DNA of 64,000 bases from Carcharhinus longimanus (taxonomy: Eukaryota). Of this stretch, positions 461-41,464 are shown piece after piece. The position numbers were made by a program, and so were the translations under genes. Every line of letters starts with the position of its first letter. Positions within the stretch are counted from its first letter, which is position 1. A model generated the notes under the pieces. That model did not search any database. It saw only the letters and a program-made list of their open reading frames with translations, and was not told the origin of the DNA. The DNA is taken from assembly GCA_030264375.1 (NCBI GenBank), contig JASCQW010000027.1, forward strand, positions 51,233,723-51,297,722, written 5' to 3'.

Positions 461-561
461 GTTTAAATGTTCTATTCCTGCTTGTGTATTCTTCCAATCA
501 AAATGAATATTGCCTGTAATGACCTGTTGATAAAAACAGGGTCATGTTTTTTTAAGAACAG

Positions 562-689
562 GTAAGGAAGATTCTAAAACAAAGCTGGGTGTTGTGCTGA
601 CAGCAAGAGTGCACCCTGGGGAAACTCAAGCCAGCTGGATGATGAAAGGCATTCTGGATTTCCTGATATCTGAGGAGCCTACAGCAAAG
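562..689 (+). CDS. Cytosolic carboxypeptidase (AGBL2/3-like) exon A: (G)[42 protein letters not shown]
   Basis: M14 zinc-binding HxxE motif in the CCP-typical context ARVHPGE..SWMMKG. Donor AAG|gtagag at 689/690. The acceptor is ambiguous (aag at 556 giving start 557, or cag at 561 giving start 562). Upstream exons are outside the window. Confidence 0.9.
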
Positions 690-775
690 GTAGAGATTAA
701 ACAAGATAACTATGTTTCTTAAATGTCGTATTTTCACTTCTACATTACAGCCATAAAAATGGAAGGGAGTTTTTA

Positions 776-1075
776 AAGTTACTTATTAGTGTTACAAATA
801 GGGTTACATTAATAGTGCAATGCAGTTACTGTGAAAATCCCCTAGTTGCCACACTCTGGCACCTTTCAGGTACACTGAGGGAGAATTTAGCATGGCCAAA
901 GCCATAACCAGCACATCTTTCAGACTGTGGAAGGAAACTGGGGCACTTGGAGGAAACCCACGCAGACACAGGGAGAACCTGCAAACTCCACACTGACAGT
1001 GACCCAAGCCAGGAATCAAACCTAGGTCCCTGGTTCTGTGAGGCAGCAGTGCTAACCACTGCGCTACCATGCCGG
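776..1075 (-). mobile_element. HE1-like tRNA-derived V-SINE (tail type 2)
   Basis: Minus-strand head gtagcgcagtggttagcactgctgcctcacag with B-box ggtttgattcc, and V-domain tgcgtgggtttcctcc. Confidence 0.9.
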
Positions 1076-1079
1076 GAGG

Positions 1080-2850
1080 GAGGAACTCAGGAAAATTGCT
1101 GTCACTAAGTGGTACCTAGTAAATTGTTGGAGCTGTGGGCTGATAAAAGCCTGAGTCCTGATGGACTTCTTTCCTAGGGTCATAAAATAGTTGTCTAGTG
1201 AGATCGCTGATTAATATAGTATAAAAGCAAAATACTGCAGATGCTGGAATCTGAAACAAAAATGGAAAATGCTGGAAAATTTCAGCAGGTCTGACAGCAT
1301 CAGTGGGGAAAGAATAGAACCGTTCAGATGTTGTCAGGGCTGCTGAGATTTTCCAGCATTTTCTGAGATAGCTGATTCATTTATTTTAATTTTCCAAACA
1401 TGCCTTCATTCAGGAAGAACTTATTAGATTGGAAGAAAGCAAACGTAATTCCATTATTCAAAAGGGAAGGGAGACAAAACAAGAAACCACAGGCCAGTTA
1501 ACTTAACATCTGTCACAGGGAAAATGTTAGAAGCTGTTCCTAATGAAGTTATGGCAGAACAGTTGAATAAGTTCAACGCAATCAGTCAGAATCAACCTGA
1601 TTTCTGTGAAAGGGGATCATGGTTGACCAACTTACTGGAATTCTTTGAGGAAGTAACTTGTGCTGTGGATAAAGGGGAACTGGTGGATTTTACTGTACTT
1701 AGATTTCCAGAAGGCATTTGATAAAGTGCCACATGAAAGGTTATTATGGAAATGAAAGCTCATGTTATATTGGTTAACACACTGGCGAGGATAGAAGATT
1801 GGCTGGCTAATAGGAAGCAGAGAGTAGGCATAAATGGGTCTTTTTCAGGTTGGTAAAATGTAATGAGTGGTGTGACACAGGGATCAATGCTGAGGCCTCA
1901 ATTGTTTACAATTCACATAAATGACTTAGATGAAGCAATTAAAGGGATGGTTGCTAAATGGGTTGATGAGACAAAGATAGACAGTAAGTTGTGAAGAGGA
2001 CACAAGGAGGCTACAAAAAGATATAAACAGGTTAAGAGAGTGGACAAAGATCTGGCAAATGGAGTGTTATGTGGGAAAATGTGGAATTGTACATTTTGGC
2101 AGAAAGAATAAAAAAGAAGCATATTATCTAAACGGTGAGTGATTGCAGAGGTCGGACGTGCAGAGGGATCTGGTTGTTCTAGTTCATGAATCACAATAAG
2201 CTCATATACAGGTACAGTAAGTAATTAGGAGAACTAATAGAATGATATCATTTATTGCACTGGGAATTGAATACAAGAGTAGGGAGATTACACTTCAGTT
2301 GTACAGGGCACTAGTGAAACCACATTTGGAGTACAGTATACAGTATTGGTTGCCTTATTTAAGAAAGGATGGAAATGCATTGGAAGCAGTTCTGATAAAG
2401 TTACCAGATTTTATCTGGAATGTGTGTGTTGTCTTGTGAGGAAAGGTTGGACAGATGGGGCTTGTATCTATTGGAATTCAGAAGAGTAAGAGGTGACTTA
2501 ATTGAAACATATAAGATCCTGAGCGTTCGTGAAAAGGTGGATGTGAAGAGGATGTTTCCTCTTGTGGGAGAATCCAGAACTAGAGGTCACTGTTTAAAAA
2601 TAAGAAGTCGCCCATTTGAAATGGAGATAAGGTAATTTTTTTTTACTCAGAGGGTTGTGAATCTTTGGAACTCTCTGAAAAGGCAGTAGAAGCGCAGTCT
2701 TTGAATATTTTTAAGGCAGAGGTGGATATAAGAAAAGGAGTGATAGGGTATCAGGAGCAGGCTGGATACAGATTTGAGATTGCAATCAGATCAGCCATGA
2801 TCTTACTAAATGGCAGAGCAGGCTTCAGGGGCTGAATGGCTTACTCTTGC
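1080..2850 (+). mobile_element. CR1-type LINE, 5'-truncated and decayed RT plus 3' end
   Basis: Frameshifted RT peptides (SWLTNLLEFFEEVT, KAFDKVPH, LYRALVKPHLEY, RRVRGDLIETYKIL) and the 3' end ggctgaatggc..actc.tgctcct. Confidence 0.95.
1216..1363. mobile_element. Short Penelope-like (family B) insertion nested in the CR1
   Basis: aaaagcaaaatactgcagatgctggaatctgaaacaaaa family sequence with an internal inversion, flanked by an approximately 17-bp duplication. Confidence 0.7.
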
Positions 2851-5800
2851 TCCTTATTTGTATAAACAAATTTGGGTTTCTTGTGTTCCTTCTGTTGCAT
2901 CCATTTTACACTAGTTGGCATTGCTGGCTAGACCAGCATTTATCGCCCATCTCTAATNNNNNNNNNNNNNNNNNNNNNNNNNNNNNNACCTTCTTTAATT
3001 ACTGCAGCCCATGTGGTGTATGTGCACCTACAGTGCTTTTCAGAGAGCATTTGTTTATTTGAATACTTCCTTTTCAACCTTTATTGTGCCAATAAAACCA
3101 TTCAATCGATTCAGCCACTTCATTTCTGCAAGACACAAGACTCAGAAACATTCCTGCGCAATCCAGGGTTCTTGAACAGCAACTGAAATAATTTTGTGTG
3201 CTTTACAGAACATTTCTAGTTTGGCTTTAGACACCAAATATAAACCATTGCCATTAAAAGCTGGAAAGAATAAGAATTAAATTATAATAAGTCAATTGAG
3301 GCAGTAAATTTAATGTAAGAAAATATGAAGAAAATGATGAAAATGGAACATATTTAGCTGAGCATTAAGGCCTTGCAGGGAAAATGATCTTACATTAGAA
3401 AGCCATTCTTTGACTGTAAATCCATAGCTTTTAGGCCAGCCAGCCGTTGCTGATTTGGTGCCAGTCCTAACCAATTACTTGCGTCGACCTTACAAACTTC
3501 ACCGCAGCTGTGGCTGAAAGCTGACACAGCTACTGCTCAGTGTGTTGTCGGACAGGTCACAGATCATATGTGCTGACAGCTGTACTGTGTGAGAAGCATA
3601 TTACAGGAAGCACCATTAGTCAGCCATCCCGAGAGTGAAATGCCATTAGTGCAAAGCAGTGAAGTGTGCTAATTAGAAAAAAGGGCAATGGTAGAAACAT
3701 AAACAGAACAATGAAAAACTAAACATTTCAAATGTTTTCTTTGATTATTATTTTTAGTGTTTCCTGCATGCTCTACATACCTGGGTGTGAATTCACAAAA
3801 ATAACAAATTAAAGCAAGTAGGGTATTTTCAGCTGAAGATTAAAAACTAGCAGCAACCATGGCATTCTGATATATACAAGCTAGGCAGCACCTAATCACT
3901 GTTTCTCTATCATCTTCTATTTCACTCTGTTTGACCTTTAGTAGCGTATTATTTTTGGGTTTTTTTACTCACTTTGATTTATCAATTTTAAAAAGCAGCT
4001 TGTTATAATCTGAGCATCATAAGTAAAGAAATTGCTGTGGTGCCTGACTATTTTCTTATCATACAATTCAATTCTTAATCATCTGATAGTATCTATTTAC
4101 TTTCTATCCAATATTCCCCATCACGAGTATCAAATTTCCTTAGAAAGTTCTACGTAGAGATGGAAGAGATCATCTTTTTGTTTCGTCTACCAAATAAAAA
4201 TTGCCAGATAGACTATTTTGCTCAAATTTCATGGAATCTGTCCCTCATAAAAGCAGTCAATGCTGGAAAAATGTAACAATGCTGGCAGTATCTGTGGAGA
4301 GAGAAACTGTGTTAACGATTCTCTCCCTGTTAGCTTTAGGAGTTATCAAGATTGCTCAAAATTTGAAGCGATTTGCAAACCTCTTTGTCATCAAATCAAC
4401 TGCTAACAGAGCCATTGAACACAATTTATACATGCTTTGGAAAGGGATTTACTTCATTGTAACAAAACTTCAGGCATGATTTTAACCCTAAATCTAGCCA
4501 GAAGTAGCTGACTGGGAAATTAAACTTATCTGCATTACTTCTTCATCCTTGTCATATCTAAATTCTGATGACCGAGATTTGCAGGCTTCCAGAAGAGTGG
4601 CTAAAGCATTATTCGAGCATTTAAATGTGCATATTTGGTTTCATTGACACGATGGACAATTGTAACTGAGGTATGGGCAGAGCATTAGCCATGGGTATAA
4701 ATTTGCAAGTCCTCTGGCAATGGGTTGACAAATGGGAAGATTAAAAAAATGGCATGGAAATGGCAACAGGGAGGCATACCCAATGTCGTCCCACTGCCAT
4801 GCCATTTTCCCAATGGCAAGATAGGTGGAAGATCAGCTATCCATCCAGAGCCCAATTTTGCCGCTGGGACCATTCAATGAAATAGCCAGCTTCCATGGGG
4901 CTCCTCCTCTTTGGGATACTCCAGGGCCCATCGATTAGCTCTCTGGCAACAATGGCCATCTCAGTAGTGTTGCCAGTTCCTTACAACAAATCCGCACCTG
5001 CTCACTGGGACTCGCCCATCTGACTGCAGCTTCCCCTCATACTTATCCCTGTTCAAGGTAGCCTCAGTCACTGAGGCACCGTCTGCTCACAGCAGCAGCT
5101 TCAAGTATGGCCAGTGGTAGTGGGCACTGCGTAGATTATTGATTTGCTAGTCCCCTGATTTAGGCTAGCAGCTGTTTGGGATGGGCTGCCACCCTCAACA
5201 GGGATGGTAGATTTGGCGCCAATCACAGAATTGGCCACCACTGGGACAATGCCTGTTTGGGTTCTGACCCCAGCGGCAGGATCTCAGACATTTTGGCAAA
5301 GTTCTGGTCATATCAGCAATAACAAAGAACAAAGAACAACCCAGCACGGGAAACAGGCCCTTCGGCCCAATGAGCCCACGCCGCCGCATCATCCTATACC
5401 TATTCTACCCTGTGTGTCTGCGAGTGGAACCCCTAACTTAGCCAGATTCAGGGGAGAATAGTGTCAATTTGGTAAACCAATCAGCCTAAGNNNNNNNNNN
5501 NNNNNNNNNNNNNNNNNNNNNNNNNNNNNNNNNNNNNNNNNNNNNNNNNNNNNNNNNNNNNNNNNNNNNNNNNNNNNNNNNNNNNNNNNNCCTTCTCACT
5601 CAGCTCCCACTCACTCCGCTGCCCGCTCCCGACGCTGCCCGCTGTATGCCGCTACCTCCTTTTTATAACCCCCGCTCCCCCTTCCCGACAATCCCCTCGC
5701 CTAACTTCTGGTACGGAAGTAAACCACACTCTCACAAACCCCGCGAACCGGAAATACAGTCACAAAGCGATTCCAGTAAATCAGGTACTCACCACAGCCA

Positions 5801-5864
5801 ATAAGAAGTGATTTTTTTTTGAAAACATTATTTATGGACTAATATTTTACCACTAATAATCTTA

Positions 5865-6195
5865 GAATGTCTACAGTGCAGAAGAAGGCCATTTGGCCCA
5901 TTGAGTTTACACCAACAATAATCCCACCTAGACCCTATCCCCATAACCCTACATATTTACCCCCCTATGCCCTCTAACCTACACATCCCAGAATACTAAG
6001 GGGCAATTTATCATGGCCAATGCACCTAACCCTCACATCTTTGGACTGTGGGAGGAAACCATAACACAAGAAGGAAACCCATGCAGCCACAGCGAGAATG
6101 TGCAGATTACACACACACAGTGACCCAAGCCGGGAATTGAACCCAGGTCCCTGGAGCTATGAGGCAGCAATGCTAACCACTGTGCCATCATGCCA
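5865..6195 (-). mobile_element. HE1-like V-SINE (CR1-type tail)
   Basis: tRNA head, V-domain and the CR1-like tail gggccaaatggcct..tgcactgtag. Confidence 0.9.
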
Positions 6196-6261
6196 TGCTT
6201 ATTTTACTGTAGTGTATTTTCAGTTATGTTCTAACCTTTACCAAATTTTGTTTTTCTACAG

Positions 6262-6335
6262 GAATTGCGACAAAGATGCATCTTTAAAATCATTCCCATG
6301 TTAAATCCAGATGGAGTGATAGTAGGAAATTATAG
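6262..6335 (+). CDS. CCP exon B: [24 protein letters not shown](R)
   Basis: Acceptor tttttctacag, donor AG|gtaaaa. Contains the M14 PMLNPDG motif. Phase 0 matches exon A. Confidence 0.95.
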
Positions 6336-6347
6336 GTAAAACATTCT

Positions 6348-6660
6348 TATAGAATCATAGAATCCTTACAGTACAGAGGGAGGCAATTCAGCTCATTGAG
6401 TCTGCACCACCTCTCTGACAGAGCATCTTACCCAGGCTCTCTCCCCGCACTATCCCTATAACCACACACATTTACCATGGCTAATCCACCTCACCAACAC
6501 ATCTTGGGACACTAAGGGGCAATTTTACCATTGTCAATCCACCTGCACATCTATTGGAGGAAACCCAATAGCAGGCACAGGGAGAAACTCCACACAAGCA
6601 AGGCTGGGATTGAACCTGAGTGCCTGGGCTAGCAATGCTAACCACAGTGACACCATGCCA
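6348..6660 (-). mobile_element. HE1-like V-SINE (decayed)
   Basis: Same family; terminal (gattctat)n repeat. Confidence 0.85.
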
Positions 6661-6987
6661 ACCTATTCTGAAGAATTACATTTAAAATAAATTAAAACTT
6701 TTCTGTTGAGTCCTTCAGTATTATAGATGGGGATATAGTGTACTGTCTGGCATCTTTCAGTTACCTTGTTTCTATTGTGAGATGGTATTTAGGGGCCGTA
6801 TGAGGCAATAGTTCCATATACAAGAGACAGTTTTCACACTGCCCATACTTAGAGAAAAACTCATCCCAAGATGTCTGCCCTCAAGCTGCCTCCAACCAAG
6901 AGGCAGCTCTTAATTGCAGACAGCGCCATTGAGAATGGTGGCTGCTGCTGGTAGTGCACTAAGGCATCGCTGCCAGATTGACCCTAA

Positions 6988-7741
6988 TGATGTAGAGATG
7001 CCGGCATTNNNNNNNNNNNNNNNNNNNNNNNNNNNNNNNNNNNNNNNNNNNNNNNNNNNNNNNNNNNNNNNNNNNNNNNNNNNNNNNNNNNNNNNNNNNN
7101 NNNNNNNNNNNNNNNNNNNNNNNNNNNNNNNNNNNNNNNNNNNNNNNNNNNNNNNNNNNNNNNNNNNNNNNNNNNNNNNNNNNNNNNNNNNNNNNNNNNN
7201 NNNNNNNNNNNNNNNNNNNNNNNNNNNNNNNNNNNNNNNNNNNNNNNNNNNNNNNNNNNNNNNNNNNNNNNNNNNNNNNNNNNNNNNNNNNNNNNNNNNN
7301 NNNNNNNNNNNNNNNNNNNNNNNNNNNNNNNNNNNNNNNNNNNNNNNNNNNNNNNNNNNNNNNNNNNNNNNNNNNNNNNNNNNNNNNNNNNNNNNNNNNN
7401 NNNNNNNNNNNNNNNNNNNNNNNNNNNNNNNNNNNNNNNNNNNNNNNNNNNNNNNNNNNNNNNNNNNNNNNNNNNNNNNNNNNNNNNNNNNNNNNNNNNN
7501 NNNNNNNNNNNNNNNNNNNNNNNNNNNNNNNNNNNNNNNNNNNNNNNNNNNNNNNNNNNNNNNNNNNNNNNNNNNNNNNNNNNNNNNNNNNNNNNNNNNN
7601 NNNNNNNNNNNNNNNNNNNNNNNNNNNNNNNNNTCTCACAACACCAGGTTTAAGTCCAACCAGTTTATTTGATAGTAATCCCACAAGCTTTTGGAAACGG
7701 TGTTCCTTCGTCAGGTACCTTCCACACACCTGACGAAGGAA
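6988..7741. mobile_element. Penelope-like (family A) terminal-repeat element, interrupted by a gap
   Basis: gatgtagagatgccggc...tctcacaacaccaggtttaagtccaac; ends in an inverted CTGACGA hammerhead-like motif. Confidence 0.6.
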
Positions 7742-7941
7742 ATAATCAATCGTTATTTAGTCAGAATAACATACTTAGTACTACAGAAGCCTTGTTAATT
7801 TGTAAGAGTCTTTAAATATTTCTAATTATTGTACTGCAGTTCTCATCAAATTTAAACCAGTAATTTGTAAAATTGAACTTGTCTGGCTAAGTAACAATAC
7901 AACATAACTTTTACTTACAGCATGTGTTTTGTGCCTTCCAG

Positions 7942-8056
7942 GTGCTCTCTTTCTGCTAGAGACCTCAATCGAAACTATCGGCATCCCAAGCGAAAACTAT
8001 TCCCTACAGTATGGCACACTAAAAAAATGGTGGAGGAGCTGCAGAAAAACCATTAT
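7942..8056 (+). CDS. CCP exon C: CSLSARDLNRNYRHPKRKLFPTVWHTKKMVEELQKNHY
   Basis: Acceptor ccttccag, donor TAT|gtgagt. DLNR substrate-binding motif. The phase 2 junction restores GNYR-CSL. Confidence 0.95.
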
Positions 8057-8469
8057 GTGAGTCAAAACAGTTGGAGCTGAGAGACCATACTTTCCTCACA
8101 GGCTTGACGGGCTAAAGGACCTGTTCCTGTGCTGTATTGCTTTTCGTTGTTTGTATAAATAGTTTTCAAAAACATATAAATGCTCATATGTTAGTGTGTT
8201 CTCTCCCCGACTATTTGACTTTCCACTTCTCCCACCTTTTTATCCCTACAATGGCATTCCCTGGGCAATTAGGTGGAAGGAAAAGCAGCTCCCTCGCCAT
8301 TGGTGCCTTATTTTCCAACTTCTCTCCTTTTTGGGGAAACGTCACAACTTCTCAGTTCTCCTAAACTGAAAACATGCTCTATTGAAAATTTTAAACATAA
8401 ATCTGTACCCTGAAAAGGAAGGAAAACTTACTATATGTCTGAAAAATATTTCAAATTACTATACTTACA

Positions 8470-11400
8470 AACATACAGATTTAGGACTAGGCCTTTCGGC
8501 CCCTTGAGCCTGTCCCGCCATTTAGTAAAGTTTGATTATGGCCTCAACTTCACATTCTGCTGACCCCAGATTACCTTTGACTCCTTTGTTAGTCAATAAT
8601 CTATCTATCTATCTCTGCCTTAAAGATAATCAATTTCTCTGTCTCTACTGTTCTCTAGGGAAGAGAGTTGCCTCTGAGAGAAATAAATTCTTCTTATCTA
8701 TCACAATGTACAATGCAACTTTAGATGCATGGTAAAGACATACTCTTGAATCTTCCCTTCGGCGTGCCAGTGGCCTGCTTGATTAATTATGGATAGGGTA
8801 GATAGGTAGCAAAAACCTTTAATCCTTAGTAGAAGGTCAATAACTACAGGATATAGATTTAAGGTAAGAAGCAGGAGATTTAGAGGGAATTTTTCACCCA
8901 GAAGAGGCAGGAACCCTCATAACATTTAAAGAGCATTTAGATGTACACCTGAAACACTATTGCATACATGGTTAGGATTCATACAACCATAAGAAATAGG
9001 AACTCCCCCAGGAGGGGAACCATCCTCTCAGCATTTACCCTATCAAGCCCCTTAAAAATCATATACGTTTCAACAAGACCACCTTTCATTCTTCTAAATT
9101 CCAATGACTAGATTCCCAACATCTTAAACCTTTCCTGATAAGACAATCCCTCCAAACTGGGGATCATCCTAGTGAATCTTTACTAAACTGCCTCCAACAA
9201 AATAATATCTTTCTTTAAATAAGGGGACCAAAAGTGCTCACAGTGCTCTGGATGTGGCCTCACCAGTACCTTGTACAGTTGCAGCAAGATTTCCCTACTC
9301 NNNNNNNNNNNNNNNNNNNNNNNNNNNNNNNNNNNNNNNNNNNNNNNNNNNNNNNNNNNNNNNNNNNNNNNNNNNNNNNNNNNNNNNNNNNNNNNNNNNN
9401 AAATATATTTAAGTCACGGGTAGATAGGTTTTTGGTAGGCAAGGGAATTAAGGGTTATGGGGAGAAAGTGGAACTGATCCTCTTCAGATCAGCCATGATC
9501 TTATTGAATGGCAGGGCAGGCTCAAAGAGCTAGATGGCCTACTCCTGCTCCTATTTCTTATGTTCTTATGTATTTGATGCAGACATATAACATGATGAAT
9601 ATATAAGCAATTTCCTTTTTAAATTCAAAACCTGTCTTTTGTAGCAGTAACGTAACTAAAATGTTGCATCTCCATACCTTGGAGGGCAATAGAATTAATA
9701 GTTTATAATACTCCTTAAACATTTACTGGCCTTCAGAGATAATCACAATTAGAAATTACATTTGAGAAAAATTGCATGAATTGTACCAGCATTTTAAACA
9801 TGCTGGGTCAGCATCAAAGGGCATCCATTATCAGCTAATTTGTCACAGTCATAGAGTCACACAGCACAGAAAATGGCCCTTGGCCCATTGTGTCTGCGCT
9901 AGCTATAAAGCACCCATCTATTCTAATCCCATTTTCCAGTACTTTGTCTTTAGACATGTATATTATGGTGTTTCAAGTGCCAATCTAAATGCTTCTTAAA
10001 TGATGAGGATTCCTGCCTCCACTGCCCTTTCAGTCAGTGAATTTCAGATTTCCAACACCCTCTGGGTGAAATGGTCTTTCCTCAAATCCCCTCTAAATCT
10101 CCTGCTCATTATCTTAATTCTATGTGCCCACACTAGTAAAGGGAAAAGTTTCTTCCTATCTATGTCTTCAAAATTAAGTTCCCCCTCACCATTCTCTGCT
10201 CTAAAGAGAGCAACCCCAGCCCAACCAGCCTCTCATTGCTGAAACGCCCCGGCCCAGTCAACATCCTGGTGAACTTTCTCTGCACCCATTCTGGTGTAAT
10301 CGCATCCATCCATATAGTGTGATGACCAGAACTTCATGCAGAACTCTAGCTATGGCCTAATTATTTTATCCAGCTCCCTGCTTTTATATTCTCTGCCTCA
10401 GCTAATAAAACCATAAGAAATAGGAACAGAAGTAGGCTGTTTGGCCCCTTGAGCCTGCTCCACCACTCAGTCGGATCGTGACTGATCTGACATTCCTTAC
10501 GTCCACTTTATTGCCCTTTCCCCATAACCCATGATCCTCTTACAGATCAAAAATTTATAAATCTCAGCCTTAAATATGCACAAGGACTCTGCCCCCACAG
10601 ATCCCTGTGACAAGGAGTTCCAGAGACTCATGATGCTCAGAAGAAATTCCTCTTCATCTCAGCCTTAAATTGGAGCCCCTTTATCCTGAGACTATGTCCG
10701 CTGATCCTAGACTTCCCCTGAGGGGAAACATCCTCTCAGCATTTATACTATCAGGCTCTTAAGCATCCTGTATGTTTCAATGAGATCACCTTTTGTTCTA
10801 AATTCCAATGAATAGAGTCCCAACCTGCTTGACCTTCACTCATAAGGCAATCCTGCCATACTGGGGATCATCCTAGTGAACCTTCCCTAAACTGCCTCCA
10901 ATGAAATAAGTGCTCTCAGCACTTCAGATGTGGTCTCACCAGTACCTTGTATAGTTGTGGGAAGAATTCCCTACTCCAACCCCCTTGAAATAAGGATCAA
11001 CGTTCCATTAGCCTTCCTGATTACTAGTTGCACCTATGTGCCAGCTTTCTGTTTATCATGCACAAGTCCCTTTGTGTTGCAGCTTTCTGCAGTTTTTCTC
11101 CATTTAAATAATACTCTATTCTTTCATTCTCACTTCCAAAATGAACAACTTCACATTTTCACGTATTAAACTTCACTTGCCAACTTTTTGCCCATTTACT
11201 TAACCTATCAATATGTCTTTGCAAACTGTTTGTATCCTTTCCACAATTTGCCTTTCCACCTATTTTTATGTCTCTGCAAATTTGGGTACAGTACACTCAC
11301 TTCCTTCCTCCAAGTCATTAATATATATTGTAAACAGATGTGGTCCCAGCACTGATCCCTGTGGAAACCCACTGGTTACAGATCACCAGTCTGAAAAATA

Positions 11401-11740
11401 ACTTTTTATTCTCTCTTGCTGTTTCCTGCCCAGTGGCCCATTCTCTGTCCATGCCAATATACTACTTACAACAAAATGAGCTCTTTGTTATGACTCTTTG
11501 CAAGGAACCTTGTAGAATGCCTTCTGGAAATGCAAATACAACACATCTATTGGTTCCCCTCCACCAACATTTGAGAGTGTCTGAATTACTCAGACACAAT
11601 TTCCCTTTCATGAAGCCATGCTAACTATGCTTGATTAGGTTATGTGCTTGGAAATGGAATTAAAGTAGATAGGTGCTTGATGGCTGGCACAGACACAATG
11701 GGCTGAAGGATGTTTTTCTGCGCTGTAAAATTCCATGACT
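8470..11740. mobile_element. Cluster of nested CR1-type LINE fragments (mostly minus strand; largest about 10410-11640)
   Basis: Several CR1 3' ends (cataagaaataggaac, tcatagagtca) and reverse-strand RT remnants. Confidence 0.85.
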
Positions 11741-12684
11741 CTGACTCTGCTCTAATTCAAAAGTAGAACAGATCTTTATTGTAGTGCCCCTTTATTTCTT
11801 TGCTGGTCCTTATCAGTGATGTTGGAAGTCACAGTATTATTGAATATGTATTGTCTCCAAGAAGTCAGAAATAACTTTGCACTCATTTCTGAAAGTGTGC
11901 AGCAAGATTATGATGCTGAAGAATGAATGAATCATGATGGTAAAAGAAATTGGCGTCAGGCACTTTGAATATCCAAATATACAAATTGAGGTCTGAATGT
12001 ATATTTTGCATCCAACGCAAATGTTTTGGGTCTTCAGTGAACAAACAAGTCATCCTTAAAGGTACTGCTGGCATGACCCACAAAAAGATTAGCTAACTTA
12101 TAAATTTCTTTGGAATTAGCTGTAGAAAAATACTCCTCCTGATGCCATCAAAACACCATAGGCTCCTGTCAGCCCAAGTTCAGCCCACGCCACATCATCT
12201 ACCCTTCCACCATCATTGTTAACACCTTGACCATTCCTTGTCCCTGCACCCCCATCCCAAACCCGGAACGACTTATGAGCTGGTTCAGTCGAAGTGGACA
12301 AAATTCCGAAGACCTTTACTGATAAGCTGAATTAGGGAGCCCAATTCTTGTTGATTTTGTATAAATGAGGCCCACAGCTCCCATTTGGAATGACCCTGGG
12401 GGCAATTTCTTCCAGACTCACATTTTCATTGCACCATTAATTTCTTACCAGGAACTGGTGCAAGTTTAGTTTCTGCCCTGTGTCTATAATTGTATGTAAA
12501 TTGGATATTAAAGGGAGTTAAATTATTTTCATGATTTGACACTGTGGCCACAAATGCAATCCACAGTTCCAAAAACGCATGGAAACCTAATGATCTGACA
12601 AAGTTAACAGTGCATTACCCTTCATCCAAATCCTGCATCTAGTCTATGTAACTGGGCATTCCTGCGTACAGTGCATCAATTAAA

Positions 12685-12972
12685 GTTTATTTATTAGCCA
12701 CAAGTAATCAAATTAACATTGCAATGAAGTTACTGGGAAAATTCCCTTGTCGCCACACTTCGGTGCCTGTTCAGGTACACGGAGAAAGAATTTAGCGTGG
12801 CCAGTGCACCTAACCAGCACGTCTTTGGACTGTGGAAGGAAACTGGAGCCCGTGGAGGAAACCCATGCAGACATGGGGAAAAAGCGCAGACTCCATACAG
12901 ACGATAACCCAAGCTGGGAATCAAACCCGCATCCGTAGTGTTGTGAGGCAGCAGTGCTAATCATTGTGCCAG
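12685..12972 (-). mobile_element. HE1-like V-SINE (tail type 2)
   Basis: Homologous to 776-1075. Confidence 0.9.
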
Positions 12973-13339
12973 CTTATTTGTTGTCCATAAGAACAGACAG
13001 CAAATTAATTCGCCTGGCAGAAGTCACCAGTTGCCCAGAAATATATTGCAGTAGGCCTCATCAGCTTGCTTACTGTCAAAATTCAAATAAGAAGGGTGAC
13101 TACAGGAATAGGATATTGGAGGTCTAATATCCTCAGATCTTTACTCATTGGGTCAGCACCTCTAGTAGAAAAAGAGGTTGGGGGATGCTGGGAGAATTGA
13201 GAAGTTTTGACTTTAACCATAAAATTTGTTAGTTAGCAGGCCTTGGTTTTGACTATCAGACTTGTTTAAGTTGATGGGCTTTCTTCTTCATTTTAAATTG
13301 TACACTTATATCTTCATTTTGTGTTTTACTTCACCACAG

Positions 13340-13483
13340 ATCCTCTTGTATGGTGACCTCCATGGCCACAGTCGAAAACCTAATGCTTTCATGTATGGCT
13401 GCAGCCAGACAGGATCCATGCGTCCATTTGAAATTCTTGACTACCTCAGAGAGAGAATATTTCCATGGCTGATCTCCCAGAGA
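13340..13483 (+). CDS. CCP exon D: ILLYGDLHGHSRKPNAFMYGCSQTGSMRPFEILDYLRERIFPWLISQR
   Basis: Acceptor ttcaccacag, donor AGA|gtaact. DxHGHSRK carries the third zinc ligand. 144 nt, phase 0-0. Confidence 0.95.
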
Positions 13484-13929
13484 GTAACTCAGAATGGATT
13501 CTTGCTGTTGTATTTTAACCTAATTGCAGGCGCTTTTATATTGGCCTCCTTTCATGTTTATTGGCAGGAGCCTGGTGTGTGTGAACAATGGCTCCCAGTA
13601 TATGTACTGTTAAACCTGTTTCGTACATCAACAGCAGGCTTTGTAAATTGAGTTATAAAATGGCCAGATGCTCTTGAGATTGTGTGTTCTGAAGCACAGG
13701 ACTGTGGTGGTCGGCTGAAATTCCCTGATAAACTCTTAAGGTTCATGAAAACTGGGAAAATCCTGCTTTAACAGGTCTTTCACGACATCATTCCCAGCAG
13801 CCTTCCACTGAGTTGCAGCTAGTCACAAGAGACCATTGTTTCAGAATCTAGCTTTGGGATCTGGAGTGTAAGCACTAGATTTGGAAACTGGAGTGTAAGA
13901 AGACCAAACTAAATGACCCCTTTCTCTCA

Positions 13930-14300
13930 TTTAGAGGTCTGCAAAATTATGAGAAGCATATATAGGGTGTATGGTCAGAGGCTTTTTCTCAGGATGGAAA
14001 GGTCAATTACAAGGGGGCACAGGTTCAAGGTGAGAGATAGTAAGTTTAGGGGAAATGTGTGGGGAAAAATTTTTCACACAGAGGGTGATGGGTGCTTGGA
14101 ACGCACTACCAGTGGAGGTGGTGGAAGCAGGCATGTTAACAATGTTCAAGGCATATCTTCCTAGACACATGGGCGGGAGAGAAACAAAGGGAAAAAACCG
14201 TGTTTGGGCAATAAGTAATGGGTCTAAATATGGATTCGGAATTGGCACAGCCTTAGTGGGCTGTGGGGTCTGTTCCTGTGCTGTATTGTTCTTTATTCTT
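13930..14300 (+). mobile_element. CR1-type LINE 3' fragment
   Basis: TRGHRFKVR..KF and FFTQRVMGAWNALP.EVVEAG peptides. Confidence 0.9.
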
Positions 14301-16448
14301 TCACCTCTAGAAATTACACTAGCTATTTATTCATTTGGTTAGGTAGATCATGGATCCCACATCCTTTTTTGCATCAATCTGTTTTAACATTAGTCAACAA
14401 CTGGGTCAACAGATGCTGCCTGACAGCTGCAAACTTCCAACATTTTCTTTTTGCTTGAGACCATCACCTGGCAAAAGATGGCCAAAAGAAATCACTTCAG
14501 ATTTGTATTGATCTCTACAAGAAGGGTGTTGGAATTCAGGTTATCATTGTCAATTAGCCCTTTAACTGCTTAATCCAAAATGATTTGAAATAATACACCT
14601 TATTGGTGATGGTGGTTCTATTTAATCCGTATAAGTAAGACTTGGCACATCTTGAGCAGTAACATCAAAGCTCAACTGTGTTGCCAATAAGGTCTAGATA
14701 GAGGTGTCATTTCTATGTCCCCAGTCAACAGTTTTTACTGTTTGGTCAACGAAGGCCCAAACCACAATTCCCGTATACTATTGCATCAGTCAATGTTGCA
14801 CATCTCTACAATTTCTGTGCTCAGGGAACCTCATGTTATACTTCCGTTACACAGCAAAGCCTATGGAGACTGATTAAACCCAATATTACTTGAACGACCA
14901 ATTACAAAAGATGTCATTTTTCCATCTACCCACTCAGGGCAGGTCAATGTCTCATGATTCCCAACCTCATTTGTTTTTTCCTACTCTCAGAGCCTTATCA
15001 GCACCTTTACACTCCAATGCCAAATTTGGCTAAAGCAAAAAAAGAAAACAGCCTTGGCTACTTGGTTATTTTGTCTCCAATTTATCCATATCTGAGCCTC
15101 TGAGACTCTGTTAAGGCGTTTATCTTTTCATACTCACACAGCGTTCTGTCTGTTTCCATGTTCTGTTAGATTTCACTTGAAGCCTACATTTTTACTGTTT
15201 GGTCAACGAAGATCCAAACACATAATTCCCATCTCATCTCTCATCTGCCCTAACCCAGGGAGTATCATGAGCAATAATTAAAAAACAAGAGTTCAATAGA
15301 AAAGGATGAGAAAAGGAGCATGGATAGAGAGATGATGGAAGAGGAGGGAAAAGGTGAAAGGAGGAGGGAATGGCAAAGGGGAAATTGGATAGGAAAGGAA
15401 GGATCAAAGATAGGGAAACTATTGCAGTGAGAGAAGGACAAGGCAACAAATTCTCAGCAGGAGGGAAGTCTAAGTGAACAATCCTTCTCTTTGACAAACA
15501 ATGAGTGATCTCCCTTGCATCCTGTAGGTCACAATTTATCTTATGATTCATCCAAGCTTATAATGGGGAATAACTAGGTAACTCGGGCAGATCTCCACCA
15601 ATTATTCCAGGTATTTCTCTCTCAGTATCCATTATCTGCCCATTTACACTCAGAGACCAAATTTGGCCCTACAAATCAAAATAGAGATTGGATAGCCAGA
15701 GATAATGGAATGAGTCTGCTCATGAGAAGATGTGGAGAGGAGGAAGTGTCTGTGTAGTTCTGGGACCGACAGGGTCACCTTGGGAAAGAGAATTAGGACC
15801 AGAAGAAGTCCATACATGCCTGGGTAAATAAAGGGTACATGAGGACAGGATTAGCTGCCTCACTCTGCTTAGAAAAATTGTTTTAAACATGGGGAAGTGG
15901 TACAAATTGCTCAATTGGAAAGTATTTTGGCAGCCTTCGATATTGAACAAAGGCTGACCTTGAGGTACTGTGAGGTTAATTAAATTTCCTACAGTGCTCT
16001 TGAAGCATGTTTTGTATAATTAAGAGCAGTTGCAGATCTGTCATCTTTGGCCAGAGTTNNNNNNNNTTTTGCAAGATCACATCCATGATGTAAAATAAGT
16101 TCGCAGCAGATTTGAAGAGCATTTTTGGAACATTTAATAGTGGCCTTTATTGAAAAAATGTCTTACAGGGAGCATCAAGCTTTTAAAACTGATCAAACAA
16201 TTGCATTAATCTTGAACAGCCCAGAGCTTTCTATATAATGTTTAATTAACACTTATGAGTTTCCAGAACCTAAGGCCAAATTAAGTTTGCAAATGTTCTT
16301 TATAATTTGGTTTAATCCAAATCCCCTCACTAAAGCATGACACATCTTTTAAATTAAATATTATTTAACAATGAAAAGTTGAATGTTTTTTTTCATTTTT
16401 GCTTTATATTGGGGACTAAACATTTTTTGTTGCATTTGGCGTTTTGAG

Positions 16449-16594
16449 GATCCAGAGAGATATGATTGGAACAGCTGCAAGTTTCATATCCATAAATGCA
16501 AAGAATCAACAGGACGTGTGGTGATGTATAGGCAACTAGGCCTCAATGACTCCTTCACCTTAGAAGCCTCATTCTCCGGAGCAGTGAAAGGACG
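16449..16594 (+). CDS. CCP exon E: DPERYDWNSCKFHIHKCKESTGRVVMYRQLGLNDSFTLEASFSGAVKG(R)
   Basis: KCKE.TGRVVM and SFTLEAS (catalytic Glu270 equivalent). Donor CG|gtaaga. The acceptor is an uncommon ttttgag. Confidence 0.93.
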
Positions 16595-17003
16595 GTAAGA
16601 TAGTCACAGTGCCATGCATGGATCGCACATTTCTAAATATAACAGTACATATAATTATTATATATATATATATAAATTTTAAAAACACAGGAGGGTAAAT
16701 TCAGTGATCACAGGAAGTTCAGGACAGAAAGCTAGATGACAACTTTGCAAACATGAGCTTCTGCTAAGAGCACAGGGGGATAGATGACTTCACCCTTGAG
16801 TAACAAAGTGAAGTATCGCACCAGAGCACATTGGTAGGCCAGTGTAATAGTCTGCTGAAGAAGGATGTTTATACAGCCCCTGGAGGCTAAGATCTGTCCT
16901 CCAGGGCAGGAAGAAGAATTGGAGGACTTAACACAGTAAGTTAATCAACAGATAGTTGGCAAAGGAGTGGGGCCAGGGCTTCTTGCCTGAGCTCTTTGCA
17001 AGT

Positions 17004-17095
17004 CATGATGTGGGTATGCCGGCGTTGGACTGGCGTAAACACAGTAAAAAGTAAAAAAAAACACAGTAAAACCTGGTGTTGTCAGACTTTTTACT
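17004..17095. mobile_element. 92-bp Penelope-like (family A) insertion with 12-bp target duplication
   Basis: ctctttgcaagt at 16992-17003 and 17096-17107; the insert is homologous to 34628-34705. Confidence 0.8.
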
Positions 17096-18015
17096 CTCTT
17101 TGCAAGTGCCATAGAGGTTTAAATTAAGTGAGGTTTATTTCAGCTACTTTTCAATACATTTTTTCAATACCCAGCTACTTTTAGTCTCGCAGGGCTAATA
17201 CATTCTTCCATCAATCCTTTCTGGAGAAGGATTCCTTTTGTGCTTAAGTATTGCATTCTTGGGCTGCTAATTTGGAACCTGTCCAATGAAAAACTAGTTA
17301 GACTTTTAAAGTTTCCAATCTCAAAATGGCAGACAAAGAGGTGATGTTCCAGGCTGCAAAATGAAACTTAACTCCAGTCCTTTGCCCCTCCACGACCCAC
17401 AGGACTGACATTTGTTTGTATAGATTTTGAATGGTTAGAAAGTGGTAGTAATCAATTTTGATTAATTCTCCAGAAAATCTTGACGCTTTCATTATTTTAC
17501 AGGAGGAAAGGAGAGGTAAAGAGGCCAGAGTAGATGGACTGAAAAAGTGATGGAGAGTAAGGAAGAAACTGGAATACAGGGCCTCTTGATTTTTTTTGTT
17601 TATACGGACAGGATCTAATTTCTTGTGCTGTTTTGTGTAAATATAGGACCTCCTTGGCAGGAGTCTTATTGTTATGTGTCAGAGTACCTCATTTTCTTGT
17701 GGAAGGCGGTGGGTGGACCCTTTTTTTGTCTGTGTGGAGCTACCCACACTTTTTGCATATGGGATGGGGGTTTATTTATGTGGGCTAGATCTATGTGTCA
17801 TTATATGATTTGGGGAAGGATATCCTGGCCCATAATTTCAAATGGTTAGACATCTCTCACCCAGAGGAGAAGGAAGAAGATCATGGAGACATCGTGGCTC
17901 TGCGAAGGGGGGCGGTTGAAAATCTCAACGCAATCTGCCACCACGCTCATATGACTTATAGGAAAACTCTCACATTGCAATTTCCATTTCTGACATGTGT
18001 TTCTTGTTTCTTCAG

Positions 18016-18114
18016 ACTTGCTGTGCGCCATTTCAATATAAACGATTATATGTCAATTGGAAAAACATTCTGTGAGGGCATTATGGACTATATCAGTCTG
18101 GAAGAAAATCCCTT
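18016..18114 (+). CDS. CCP exon F: LAVRHFNINDYMSIGKTFCEGIMDYISLEENP(L)
   Basis: Acceptor tttcttcag, donor TT|gtaagt. HF...D..S.G...C...D matches the last helix of the CCP2/3 catalytic domain. Phase 2-2. Confidence 0.92.
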
Positions 18115-18209
18115 GTAAGTTCTAGAATTTATAACTGGTTTTAACTCACTACAAAAATGTAGAGGTCAAAGGGCAGATTTTCTTACCCCAGCCCTTGCCA
18201 TAATGCTGG

Positions 18210-19718: not shown

Positions 19719-19864
19719 GAAACTTAATGAAGTAATTCTGAATTTGACGAATTCGATAACAAGAAATCAAAGAAGGGACAGCACTCCTACAGTCAATTCA
19801 GACTTCAGTTTGTTTGCAGAAGAAGATAAAGGACAGAAATATGGATCAACTAGTTCAGATTCTG
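19719..19864 (+). CDS. CCP exon G (C-terminal tail): KLNEVILNLTNSITRNQRRDSTPTVNSDFSLFAEEDKGQKYGSTSSDS
   Basis: Acceptor tttttgtag, donor G|gtaaat. Open in the phase required by exon F. Confidence 0.8.
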
Positions 19865-26117: not shown

Positions 26118-26233
26118 ATTCCGAATCTAACTTGACTCAACTGGATGAGGTGAAGGGAAAAGTAAAAATAAACAGTGATAATGAAGAAGTGAGGCACCTG
26201 AACAAAGCTCTCCTGCTCTGTCAATCTAAACAG
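26118..26233 (+). CDS. CCP exon H: (D)SESNLTQLDEVKGKVKINSDNEEVRHLNKALLLCQSKQ
   Basis: Acceptor tttttatttcag, donor CAG|gtatat. Phase 1 in, phase 0 out, compatible with both neighbours. Confidence 0.7.
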
Positions 26234-30293: not shown

Positions 30294-30433
30294 AATGACT
30301 TGACAAATCAGCTAAAACATCAACAAGCAAAGAATTTTCTTCAATTAGAAGACAAGATGTCACTGGAGTCAATAAAGCAATGCTACGCAATGCTAAACCA
30401 GATGAACTTGTCTAAGTCAGTGCTCGAATCAGA
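30294..30433 (+). CDS. CCP exon I: NDLTNQLKHQQAKNFLQLEDKMSLESIKQCYAMLNQMNLSKSVLES(E)
   Basis: Acceptor tttctcatag, donor GA|gtaagt. Open, phase 0 to 2. Confidence 0.75.
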
Positions 30434-31937: not shown

Positions 31938-32085
31938 GACAAGTGAAGACAGCAACAGTGAGTTTGAATCCGAGGTAACATTTTATTCCAAGGCAAGGAA
32001 GAAAAAAGTACAAAGACCCTCAAAAGCCAGGTCTGCTCTCCCTGCCCTCTCCATCCGTCAGATGGGCAAGCACAGGACTAAGCAG
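31938..32085 (+). CDS. CCP exon J: TSEDSNSEFESEVTFYSKARKKKVQRPSKARSALPALSIRQMGKHRTKQ
   Basis: Acceptor tttttcag, donor CAG|gtaaat. Phase 2 to 0. An acidic serine patch followed by a basic cluster, as in CCP2/3 tails. Confidence 0.75.
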
Positions 32086-32639: not shown

Positions 32640-32753
32640 ATGAATCTGATGGCACTGAAGAGCTACACACCATTTGTGAACCAATATGCCAATCGCAGCA
32701 ATGGAGGAATCCCAATGTTTGCTCAGGAACGTCTAATGGAAAGAACTGCAAAG
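32640..32753 (+). CDS. CCP exon K: MNLMALKSYTPFVNQYANRSNGGIPMFAQERLMERTAK
   Basis: Donor AAG|gtaaag, open frame, phase 0-0. The acceptor is weak (ttacag giving start 32640, or the in-frame aag giving start 32622). Confidence 0.7.
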
Positions 32754-35475: not shown

Positions 35476-35529
35476 CGAGTGAAAGAAATGGAAAATGCTG
35501 AAAAATTCCAAGAAAAATCAATTTCTCGT
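35476..35529 (+). CDS. CCP exon L: RVKEMENAEKFQEKSISR
   Basis: Acceptor ttttacag, strong donor CGT|gtaagt. 54 nt, phase 0-0; continues the helical ERTAK-RVKEME. Confidence 0.75.
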
Positions 35530-36377: not shown

Positions 36378-36537
36378 TTACTGAGAAAGAAAGACGATGT
36401 CAGTCATGTTCCTGTTAAGAATCACATGTTTTCCTTTTCCACTGACAACCAGAATAATAAAGGATTCAATGGATGTGTAACAAGAATTAAAAAGGAAGCA
36501 GTATTTTCACAATGCAAGGACAACTACAGGAATATTG
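36378..36537 (+). CDS. CCP exon M: LLRKKDDVSHVPVKNHMFSFSTDNQNNKGFNGCVTRIKKEAVFSQCKDNYRNI
   Basis: Strong acceptor tttttctttcag, donor G|gtaaag. Open 53 codons, phase 0 to 1. Confidence 0.6.
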
Positions 36538-36611
36538 GTAAAGAAAGCACAAGTCCAAGCACTGGTTCTGTGTTGTTGGAATGTCAATAACTTCCAATTT
36601 TCACTGCAGTA

Positions 36612-38417: not shown

Positions 38418-38511
38418 AAGCAACATGTGCTTTGAAAGGTGCCTGTGCGGTGGATTTAATTCAAGACCAAAGGAGTTCAAAATGTAATTCACCTCTGGCA
38501 AGCAATGAAAG
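38418..38511 (+). CDS. CCP exon N: (E)ATCALKGACAVDLIQDQRSSKCNSPLASNE
   Basis: Acceptor ttattttgcag, donor AG|gtaaag. Phase 1 to 2, compatible with exon M. Confidence 0.6.
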
Positions 38512-39234
38512 GTAAAGAAAGAGAACACAGTGGTTGAAAGTGCAGGGTTCAGTGTAAAATGCAGTCAATCTTAGTTATGAGAATAGTGTCATTTTTTGTT
38601 TCACGTTTCCCTTCACCTGTGTTCAATAACTGTTTAATCAGTTCCTTCTTTAAGCTGCTTTTTATTTGTGTCTGATAATGAATGCAGTACAAACTTGCTG
38701 ATATGATTGCTTTGACAAGATCCTGTAAAATAACTCAGTGAGCTATTGTGATCTGCACAGAGCAACCAATGAAAACAACAAAATTTAAATATGATTTGAA
38801 AAAGTCCATTGTCGTACCCTTTTAAAAGTGATGGGAAGTAACATTCTTGACACTGCAGATTGTGAATTCAGACTTGAAGCAATTATTTGGATTTTTAGAA
38901 TTTCAAATAGGGCAATGTGTTATTTAATACATATTTGTTTATTAGCATTTTAATATTGATGGTGCATCATATTGTATGAGTGCATAGTGCTATAATATGA
39001 TTTCCAATCTTGATTCCCAACACAACAATTTGCCAATCAAATTATTGGATTTGAGCTGGGATTAGCCTGGTTGTCTTTCCTTTTGGTTGGGTTTACTACA
39101 TAATGAAGATAGACTTGAGATGAAAGAAAGTTTAACAGAAAGAATTGTTTACATTCTTTGCTATCTACTGTTAAGGCACTAACCTTGAACAGATAGCAAG
39201 CTGAAAATAAATCGAAAAAGAAAATGGTGACAAA

Positions 39235-39715
39235 TTGGTAATGTCATTGGACTAGTAATCCAGAGGCCCATGTCCTGGGAAAACAGGTTCAAATTCCCAC
39301 GGCTGGTGGAATTTAAATTCAGTTAATGAATTGAAACCTAATCTCAATAATGGTGCCATGGAAACTATCAATTGTCATAAAAACCCTGTCTGGTTCACTA
39401 ATGGCTGTTAGGGAAGGAAATCTGGCTCTGACAAAGGGCCACCTAGACTTGAATCATTAGCTTTGTTCTTTCTTCACAGATGCAGTCACACCTTCTGAGA
39501 TTTTTCCAGCAATTTCTGCTTTTGTTTCAGGTTCCAGCATCCGCAGTAATTTGCTTTAATCTGCCCTATACGTGACTTCAGACCCACAGCAATGTGGCTG
39601 GCTCTTAATTGCCCTCTGAAATGGCCTAGCAAACTGCTCTGTTCATGGACGATTAGGGATGGTCAACAACACATGTTGGTCTTGTCAGCAACGCCCAGAT
39701 CCCAAAAGGAATTTA
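39235..39715 (+). mobile_element. tRNA-derived SINE sharing its 3' tail with the L2/CR1-group LINE; nested family B insertion at about 39425-39560
   Basis: ggtaatgtcattggactagtaatccagagg head and ctggttcactaatg....tagggaaggaaatctg core. Related copies at 40665-40840 (+) and 41600-41990 (-). Confidence 0.75.
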
Positions 39716-40928
39716 TAAACCTGTCAATTCTGGAAGTCTGGAATAAAACCAGAAATTGATGGAAACAGAATAGATCCAACAATGTTGACAGTCTTGCTGT
39801 GTATTTTTAGTTTAGAGTAGGATAGGCATTGAATCCAGCTCCTCATTCACTATGTGGCAAGTTCATGGTTTAGCTATTTACTTAGAGTGGAAGCCAAGTA
39901 ATGGCTCAATACTTTCCATAGAAAAGACAGCAATTTAGTGGTCCAGATGCAGAGCTTTGTGTGGCAGGAAATAACGTTGAATTAATGTATGTTACAAACA
40001 GGTCTATGCTTCTGTATTTTAAATAGGTATTGATCTCCTAGTTGGCTATAGCACAACAAATGATGGTTCTTTCTCTTTTAAAGAGGACACAAAAACAATA
40101 TGTCAAAATCCTCACACCACCAGCTACAAGACAGGACATGTAACAATAAAGAAGATCATGTATGCTCTGACAAAAGGTCATCCAGACTCGAAACATTGGT
40201 TCTATTCTCTTTCCACAGATGCTGTCAGACTGGCTGAAATTTTCCAGCAATTTCTGTGTTTGTGTCATGTACACTTAGTCACATGAATTAAGTCTGGCAT
40301 ACTGTCATAATCAACAGTGAATTATCTCATTGCTTTTTTCATGAATGATGTTTGGAAATAAAAACTTTGTTAAACTTGAAAATTATAAAGTTATTAATTC
40401 TGACTTTAATAAATTGGATTCTGATGGCTGTTTTTATCTACTTCAAAAAATCCTTATTTTAGTGATCTGTTATTATTAAAATAAATCGATTTCCATTAAT
40501 CCTATTTTTTAACGACATCAAATTATAAAAAAAAATGCCATGCACATTTTCACCCAAGCTGTTGCAGTGGTCATTTCATTTAGAGTGAAGGATCTACACA
40601 GATCAGAGGGGTAGGGAGAGGGGAGGAGATACATTTTTGCTACTTTCAACTATGAACTTCTATCTGGATGGTGTTCAGTAATGTCCTTTAGGGGAAAAAA
40701 TCTGTTGTCCTCGCCTGGTCTGACCTGCATGTGATTTCAGGGTCACAGCAATGCGGTTGGCTCTCAACTGCCCTCCAAGGGCAATTAGGGAAGGGCAATA
40801 AATGCTGGCCAGCCAGTGGCGCCCATGAATGAATAAAAAAAAGTACGAGATTTGTATTAACAAGAAAATAGAATTTTAGATAAGTCCCTCCCATTAAAAA
40901 ATTCCATTTGCCTTTATATTGTTCACAG

Positions 40929-41043
40929 TACTCAGAAACTATGGTGCCAGGCATCACCATTTCTACAAAGGCTAAGAACCAAGATTCAAGAATCCCCTTT
41001 GGTAGCTATCCACAAAGAACAATCCCACAAGACTCTATTGTAG
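40929..41043 (+). CDS. CCP exon O, probable last coding segment: (S)TQKLWCQASPFLQRLRTKIQESPLVAIHKEQSHKTLL*
   Basis: Acceptor ttgttcacag. The phase 2 frame is open to TAG at 41041-41043. The exon continues to donor CAG|gtaaat at 41061. Confidence 0.5.
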
Positions 41044-41283
41044 ACTAATACAGCCAAGCAGGTAAATGTACTATTGTATAATCAATTCCATGTTACAGTC
41101 CTAGGTAAGCATGTAATGAGTCTGGATGCTCTCGATAGCACATTAATTAGCATTGTCATCAACTCTGAGAGAATTTTTGTCACATTGATAATATTGCAAA
41201 GCTATCTTTTCTGAAATTACTCAAAATAGTCTTTGTACTGCATTTGATCTCCATTGGCAATTAATGTTATTATATCCTTCCAG

Positions 41284-41464
41284 ATGGTTGCTAATGTAAA
41301 GTGTTGCGAAAACATCAGGAACACCCTGGAGCTCTACTTACACAAGTTCCTCTGCACACGCCTTAACCTGTATGACACAGTCTATCTTCAATGGCAACAA
41401 AGCTTCATGACCTCTGCAAATGCATTTAAAGAATGCCAGCACATATCACAATATATGTAATAAA
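41284..41464 (+). other. Probable terminal exon of the CCP gene with polyadenylation signal
   Basis: Acceptor tccttccag at 41283. A 58-codon open frame ends at TAA (41458-41460), which overlaps AATAAA (41459-41464). Confidence 0.45.

Follow-up and report, generated by a model that had tools for sequence, protein, structure and literature searches.

A candidate seventh subfamily of animal cytosolic carboxypeptidases, represented by an intact gene of Carcharhinus longimanus

Cytosolic carboxypeptidases (CCPs) are zinc exopeptidases of the M14D family. The zinc ion (Zn2+) is held by His69, Glu72 and His196, and water is activated by Glu270. Three more residues, Arg127, Asn144 and Arg145, bind the substrate at its scissile carbonyl and terminal carboxylate, and a basic pocket formed by Lys250 and Arg255 selects an acidic last residue. 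Papers on CCPs describe six family members in mammals (PMC4230590, PMC13279043, PMC4137062) and four in zebrafish (PMC4055263). Models of all six CCPs attribute their preference for acidic residues to Arg255 together with Lys/Arg250 (Tort et al. 2014, PMC4230590). CCP2 and CCP3 are deglutamylases enriched in testis, trachea and lung, and trimming of their non-conserved ends raises the activity (PMC4230590). CCP5 prefers branch-point glutamates (PMC4137062). Here we describe a CCP gene from a window of 64,000 nucleotides, C27:51233723-51297722 (contig JASCQW010000027.1), of the 2.68-Gb genome of Carcharhinus longimanus, whose proteins are closest to those of sharks. Very probably it represents a seventh animal CCP subfamily, sister to the line of AGBL2 (CCP2) and AGBL3 (CCP3), predicted to remove C-terminal and side-chain glutamates of tubulin and likely lost in mammals and most bony fish.

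The structure, the active-site motifs and the splicing of the core exons identify the gene as an intact spliced member of the CCP family. The motifs HPGE, NPDG, DLNR, DLHGH and FTLE are all on the plus strand, each in a separate short open stretch. Fifteen coding exons of the window (Table 1) and three exons upstream of it, spliced with shark orthologs as a guide, are phase-compatible and form 747 codons. All 17 introns of this splice have GT-AG ends. The frame has a single stop, at positions 41041-41043; the other two frames have 58 and 52 stops. The original prediction, made from the letters of the window, had claimed an intact M14D domain in phase-compatible exons, and the stop-free splice bears it out. 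The proposed limits had to be shifted: the first exon of the window begins at 562 rather than 557, the tail following FTLE has 389 residues rather than about 360, and the coding region ends at 41043 rather than 41464. The segment 41284-41464 is probably an exon of the 3' untranslated region (UTR), as it has no match in the orthologs and ends at AATAAA (41459). The open reading frame 41284-41457 was rejected as a coding exon, and an apparent stop near 38512 was rejected as a real one: it sits beyond a splice donor.

Contigs from four runs of one study, which are guessed to be RNA (none is recorded as such), were compared with positions 400-18300, and part of the records was shown. They join the core exons with zero or one mismatch. 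One contig joins 13483 to 16449, another joins 16593 to 18015, and the third sets 558-687 and 13340-13483 apart by exactly two intervening exons (74+115 nt). This comparison covered the core exons; the tail exons were delineated by ortholog matches and splice sites. The possibility of a pseudogene was rejected given the open frame, the spliced contigs and the 91% core identity to a distant shark.

HPGE, GNYR, DLNR, DLHGH and FTLE are all present and were aligned to CCP5. Thus the protein has the zinc ligands (HxxE...H), Arg127, Asn144/Arg145 and the catalytic Glu270 that define M14D. The basic S1' pocket (Lys/Arg250, Arg255; numbering by spacing and alignment) corresponds to KESTGR. In the phylogenetic clade of the window gene, described below, the catalytic motifs are kept in 153-162 of the 162 proteins of at least 600 aa, many of them isoforms, and a motif matching KESTGR is present in all 162.

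A search of the genome with the basking-shark ortholog yielded 34 matches at seven loci. Besides the window gene, these are an AGBL2-like, an AGBL3-like, two CCP1/4-like, a CCP5-like and one more locus. The AGBL2-like gene, C72, is 94% identical to S. torazame CCP2 and nests in the vertebrate CCP2 clade. The AGBL3-like gene, C112, groups with CCP3 in a quick tree (SH-aLRT, the Shimodaira-Hasegawa-like approximate likelihood ratio test, 91) and has no fixed place inside CCP2/3 in the other two trees. Thus separate AGBL2-like and AGBL3-like genes do exist in the same genome, as the idea of an extra paralog supposes. The second C27 locus matches the CCP5 sequence of PDB 8v3m. C43 and C163 resemble each other and are presumably CCP1/CCP4 (AGTPBP1/AGBL1), and C81 we take to be CCP6. 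A genome search with the Pfam domain PF18027 found only two genes, both with large exons, since small exons score too low. In C72, the exon with the DFHGH zinc ligand (L080:5703-5862) has an in-frame TAG in the assembly. Two presumed-RNA contigs splice across it with three differences each (only some of which are listed), and the start of a DNA contig is one base past the T. An assembly error or an allele is as likely here as a broken AGBL2.

With CCP2 and CCP3 the window gene has in common the M14 domain (PF00246), an N-terminal CCP domain (PF18027) of which part is readable in the assembly, the residues of the catalytic site and the pocket, and an acidic stretch followed by a basic one in the tail. 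Within the genome, the core of its protein is 48% identical to the AGBL2-like, 47% to the AGBL3-like, 36% to the CCP1-like and 27% to the CCP5-like protein. However, it occupies a different locus, has an insertion of approximately five residues in the N-terminal domain and carries four clade-specific motifs outside the domain. The gene structure differs as well, as had been suggested. C72 and C112 each have one core exon of 783 nt and have their introns in common, whereas five introns of the window gene fall within the span of this exon. Among its ten core introns, one is common to AGBL2/3, one to the CCP1-like locus (NY^G, phase 1) and one to the CCP5-like locus. The claim that the domain stretch is split over six small exons instead of a single large one stands insofar as six exons do cover the 783-nt stretch, but three of the six lie upstream of the window. 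CCP1 and CCP4 have the same fold and catalytic residues; however, they are outside the clade, and their other introns are offset. CCP5 (AGBL5, PDB 8v3m-8v3s) is the best match in both sequence and fold among solved structures, despite the low identity.

In a quick tree of 74 rows, the window gene belongs to a clade of 47 rows (SH-aLRT 96) that spans from cnidarians to sharks, with a branching order close to that of the animal species tree. Vertebrate CCP2/3 and one rotifer protein form a separate clade of 21 rows (95), so that the clade of the window gene is distinct and older than vertebrates. It was recovered in a careful tree of 35 of the 74 rows (19 rows, support 96/94). A tree in which all 18 vertebrate rows are forced together is rejected by 150 log-likelihood units (approximately unbiased (AU) test, p=1.6e-5, under the model used). 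The rotifer Rotaria sordida has proteins of both clades (P0141 on one side of the split, P0287/P0291 on the other). A scan of metagenome loci produced compact CCP genes with 34-47% identity, none of them in the clade of the window gene. When 68 of the 80 metagenome CCP loci were added to a quick tree (12 loci under 330 aa were left out), the clade had support 100 with none of the 68 inside, some long branches being flagged. In this tree with microbial outgroups the clade (100) is united with CCP2/3 (99) and two beetle proteins (98), to the exclusion of all 68 metagenome sequences, and the window gene is in a lineage sister to CCP2/3. A long-branch JGI protein, P0265, groups with the vertebrate members (99) and possibly comes from a tunicate.

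Several orthologs are named "cytosolic carboxypeptidase 2-like" or "AGBL3" in databases, and this, together with the one intron position common to AGBL2/3, would agree with a vertebrate ohnolog or a shark-specific duplicate of AGBL2/AGBL3. However, the window protein is closer to proteins of molluscs, amphioxus and cnidarians (54-59%) than to AGBL2/3 of its own genome, and the motifs that its clade has in common with cnidarians are missing from all 117 CCP2/3 proteins. Neither the trees nor the AU test place it inside the vertebrate AGBL2 or AGBL3 clade. A duplication of this kind can hardly be the explanation.

It is also improbable that AGBL2/3 emerged within the clade, for instance as a partly processed copy, the clade itself being the ancestral CCP2/3 gene of animals with its many introns. 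This would make the invertebrate members pro-orthologs and not a separate subfamily. Indeed, two of the five introns opposite the single 783-nt exon of AGBL2/3 are at positions common to the CCP1-like and CCP5-like loci, which fits intron loss in the AGBL2/3 line, and a second gene of the CCP2/3 type was seen in one invertebrate species only. On the other hand, all three trees recover the clade as monophyletic, with AGBL2/3 outside. The rotifer protein and the beetle proteins are outside it, on the AGBL2/3 side. Of the 68 metagenome CCPs, 63 fall into two groups that are not part of the animal clade, and most have a higher score with CCP2 than with the clade of the window gene. Under the preferred reading, that of a separate seventh subfamily, a duplication would have preceded the cnidarian-bilaterian split; the window gene would have kept many exons and AGBL2/3 would have one large core exon. 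In nine of 14 short database proteins (13 unnamed and one from an annelid) the similarity begins at a common 5' exon boundary, and in 12 it stops at a common 3' boundary. This suggests that the corresponding introns predate vertebrates.

Orthologs were collected with two queries, the best 120 matches being listed for each. A 60-aa exon query matched 140 proteins of 152 candidates. Among those listed there are 11 shark or chimaera entries (83-95% identity) and proteins of molluscs, amphioxus, a hemichordate, echinoderms, an annelid and a brachiopod (58-67%). A 400-aa core query matched 4786 proteins of 7017 candidates. The best 120 contain eight sharks followed by sterlet (65%), amphioxus, molluscs, two lampreys, Saccoglossus and echinoderms, and also cnidarians, a nemertean, a bryozoan, a flatworm and rotifers. 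The list includes two multi-domain outsiders (from a beetle and an alga) and P0141, the rotifer protein of the AGBL2/3 side. The protein cluster of sterlet also contains a paddlefish protein. The core of the window protein is 64% identical to sterlet, 59% to amphioxus, 58% to limpet, 55% to lamprey, 54% to Nematostella and 47% to a fast-evolving rotifer member. In the sterlet isoform P0241 the motif FESGNL is partly missing and reads FESSGEF, perhaps because of a skipped or mis-annotated exon. The firefly gene models P0121, P0129 and P0161 have two or three tandem CCP domains, which may be the true architecture or a fused annotation.

Among the best 120 of the 4786 matches (413-1315 aa) there is no member from teleosts, tetrapods, gar, bichir, coelacanth, lungfish or rays (no genome of such groups was searched directly), and yet the searched database does contain CCP2 proteins from each of them. 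The list reaches down to 443 bits, and 114 vertebrate CCP2/3 proteins score at most 420, against 633 for the sturgeon and 534 for the lamprey members. Thus a member of this length from any of these groups probably would be listed, and loss in mammals and most bony fish is likely. For mammals, the likely loss is read from absence among the matches listed and from the six-member family in print, rather than from mammalian genomes. The original prediction of an ancient CCP2/3-related lineage kept in cartilaginous fish and lost in mammals was right about a separate old clade, but this clade is not confined to cartilaginous fish: it includes sterlet, paddlefish, two lampreys, and many invertebrates as distant as cnidarians, and is thus a pan-animal subfamily. 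Rays and skates have CCP2 entries and no clade member among the matches listed; sharks and chimaera do have clade members. A separate loss in batoids is possible.

Four blocks outside the catalytic domain are conserved from cnidarians to sharks. Profiles derived from 21 representatives match 111, 120, 148 and 135 of the 148 long clade proteins (many of them isoforms) and none of the 117 CCP2/3 proteins. None of the four blocks matches a Pfam family, two tail blocks have no usable Atlas match, and an Atlas search with an ortholog returned only generic M14 clusters. In the structural model of the basking-shark ortholog (mean predicted local distance difference test score, pLDDT, 56; shallow alignment) there is a carboxypeptidase core and a mostly disordered tail, with two better-predicted helices at the tail motifs. 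The best structural matches of this model are CCP5 (E 3.5e-24) and bacterial CCPs.

The window protein is most likely a zinc deglutamylase similar to CCP2/3. A zinc exopeptidase that shortens polyglutamate is expected because the catalytic and pocket residues are present and CCP2/3 are deglutamylases. It would shorten the polyglutamate chains of tubulin and produce delta2-tubulin, probably in cells that bear motile cilia or flagella, as is the case with CCP2/3, and the clade-specific N- and C-terminal motifs may set its location or restrain its activity. A different main role of a real separate paralog appears unlikely. It could involve another acidic-tailed substrate, deaspartylation, or a mainly structural function of the tail motifs: CCP3 also removes aspartate and CCPs act on non-tubulin tails (PMC4230590), and the four conserved motifs have no match in Pfam. 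However, the specificity pocket and the basic entrance residues are those of known deglutamylases, and CCP2 and CCP3, the closest tested relatives, act on tubulin (PMC4230590). More speculatively, the deglutamylase could be an ancestral seventh eraser with its own targeting modules (the N-terminal helix, the acidic helix and the FVNxY..GIP..ER motif), directed to a specific axonemal or centriolar site or substrate and non-redundant in most animal phyla. It would then have escaped notice owing to its loss in human, mouse and zebrafish, and probably also in fly and worm, with several separate losses in vertebrates (rays, lobe-finned fish and most ray-finned fish).

A number of observations weigh against a seventh subfamily of tubulin deglutamylases lost in bony vertebrates. 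Teleosts and tetrapods have motile cilia and yet seem to lack the gene, and a simple link to motile cilia fails to explain the losses. Rotaria sordida is the only invertebrate in which both paralogs were seen. With the CCP1-like and CCP5-like outgroups alone the trees do not settle the sister group, and the sisterhood with CCP2/3 comes from the quick tree (98). The loss in bony vertebrates and rays is read from one ranked list, that of the core query with its limits of rank and length. The 60-aa exon search missed the sturgeon and lamprey members, so such absences can mislead, and its lack of bony fish was set aside. For approximately 65 residues of the ortholog P0001 (372-436, with the FESGNL motif) no match was seen in the readable part of the assembly, the interval being partly N. 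Finally, the runs used for splicing are guessed RNA from a single study and perhaps come from a close relative.

The gene starts approximately 129 kb upstream of the window, with six further exons back to an ATG near C27:51104370. The upstream exons encode the motifs WYYF and YPY of the N-terminal CCP domain; FESGNL of the same domain (PF18027) is present in shark orthologs, and its exon is not seen in the readable assembly. Between the second and the third predicted coding exon there is an intron of approximately 86 kb (about 127 to 42 kb upstream of the window). The first exon is strongly conserved in sharks (70-85%) and partly similar in sterlet, and its membership in the transcript follows database gene models. 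Within the window, the catalytic exon 16449-16594 has a decayed partial copy at 18210-18310, just behind the exon 18016-18114; this copy matches at 83% over 105 nt and contains a stop. HPGE at 10262 and FTLE at 16789 are chance matches outside exons.

The order of genes is SLC35F6-like (+), clusterin (-), SCARA3-like (+), the window gene (+), CCDC25-like (-), ESCO2-like (+), PBK-like (-). Clusterin was identified by Pfam and SCARA3-like by coiled-coil and collagen exons, whereas Pfam gave no match for the ESCO2-like and PBK-like exons; all names but clusterin are our presumption. The neighbourhood had been described as different from that of AGBL2/3. The locus would differ from the positions presumed for these genes in human, 11p11 (AGBL2) and 7q33 (AGBL3), but the neighbourhood is not foreign, as the block CLU-SCARA3-CCDC25-ESCO2-PBK presumably has the same order in human 8p21, with no CCP gene. 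This order would fit loss in place.

Table 1. Features of the window gene and its neighbour (positions in the window; residues in CPA numbering)
Feature	Position	Strand	Evidence or remark
Intron	1..561	+	Upstream N-terminal-domain exons C27:51220754-51220908, 51227712-51227866, 51229192-51229378
Coding exon, HPGE (zinc ligands His69 and Glu72)	562..689	+	On presumed-RNA contig X3 record 16
Coding exon, NPDG, ends in GNYR (Arg127 split by phase-2 intron common to CCP5-like locus)	6262..6335	+	Length fits gap in contig X3 record 16
Coding exon, DLNR (Asn144/Arg145)	7942..8056	+	Contig X4 record 24 spans 7940-8056
Coding exon, DLHGHSRK (zinc ligand His196, basic S1/S3 residues)	13340..13483	+	Contig X2 record 10 joins to 16449
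Coding exon, KESTGR (Lys250/Arg255 acidic-residue pocket) and FTLE (catalytic Glu270)	16449..16594	+	Contigs join to both neighbour exons
Coding exon, end of carboxypeptidase domain	18016..18114	+	Contig X4 record 29
Tail exon	19719..19864	+	Ortholog match and splice sites
Tail exon	26118..26188	+	Ortholog match and splice sites
Tail exon, start of clade-specific helix preceding acidic Ser/Glu/Asp run	30294..30433	+	Splice, profile, model
Tail exon, acidic run then basic stretch	31938..32085	+	Splice, profile
Tail exon, clade-specific FVNxY..N.GIP..QER motif	32640..32753	+	Splice, profile, genome search (single match, single copy in genome)
Tail exon	35476..35529	+	Ortholog match and splice sites
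Tail exon	36378..36537	+	Ortholog match and splice sites
Tail exon	38418..38511	+	Ortholog match and splice sites
Last coding exon, to TAG stop; splice donor 18 nt further	40929..41043	+	Ortholog match, splice
Probable 3' UTR exon, ends at AATAAA	41284..41464	+	Inferred
Neighbour gene, presumably CCDC25-like	48478..63752	-	One exon matches Pfam NFACT-R_1, E 9e-6, below curated cut-off

In RefSeq, the orthologs are automatic models named "CCP2-like", "AGBL3" or "uncharacterized". No paper on a further animal CCP clade was found in the openly readable literature, searched by titles and the beginnings of abstracts, nor one that mentions "CCP7" with "cytosolic carboxypeptidase"; the family phylogeny of Rodriguez de la Vega Otazo 2013, which is outside this scope, may draw an invertebrate clade. 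We very probably deal with a real, well-supported and apparently unnamed seventh subfamily of a known enzyme family, with a predicted function.

A seventh subfamily that extends from cnidarians to sharks and sturgeons would change the set of tubulin deglutamylases attributed to the animal ancestor. Human CCP2/3 would not be orthologous to many of the invertebrate proteins that carry the label "CCP2-like" or "AGBL3", which would matter for the work on cilia and sperm in sea urchin, molluscs, flatworms and Nematostella. A direct test of CCP targeting would be provided by the conserved unannotated motifs. Finally, the shark locus pinpoints the place to seek a remnant of the gene in bony vertebrates, between SCARA3 and CCDC25.

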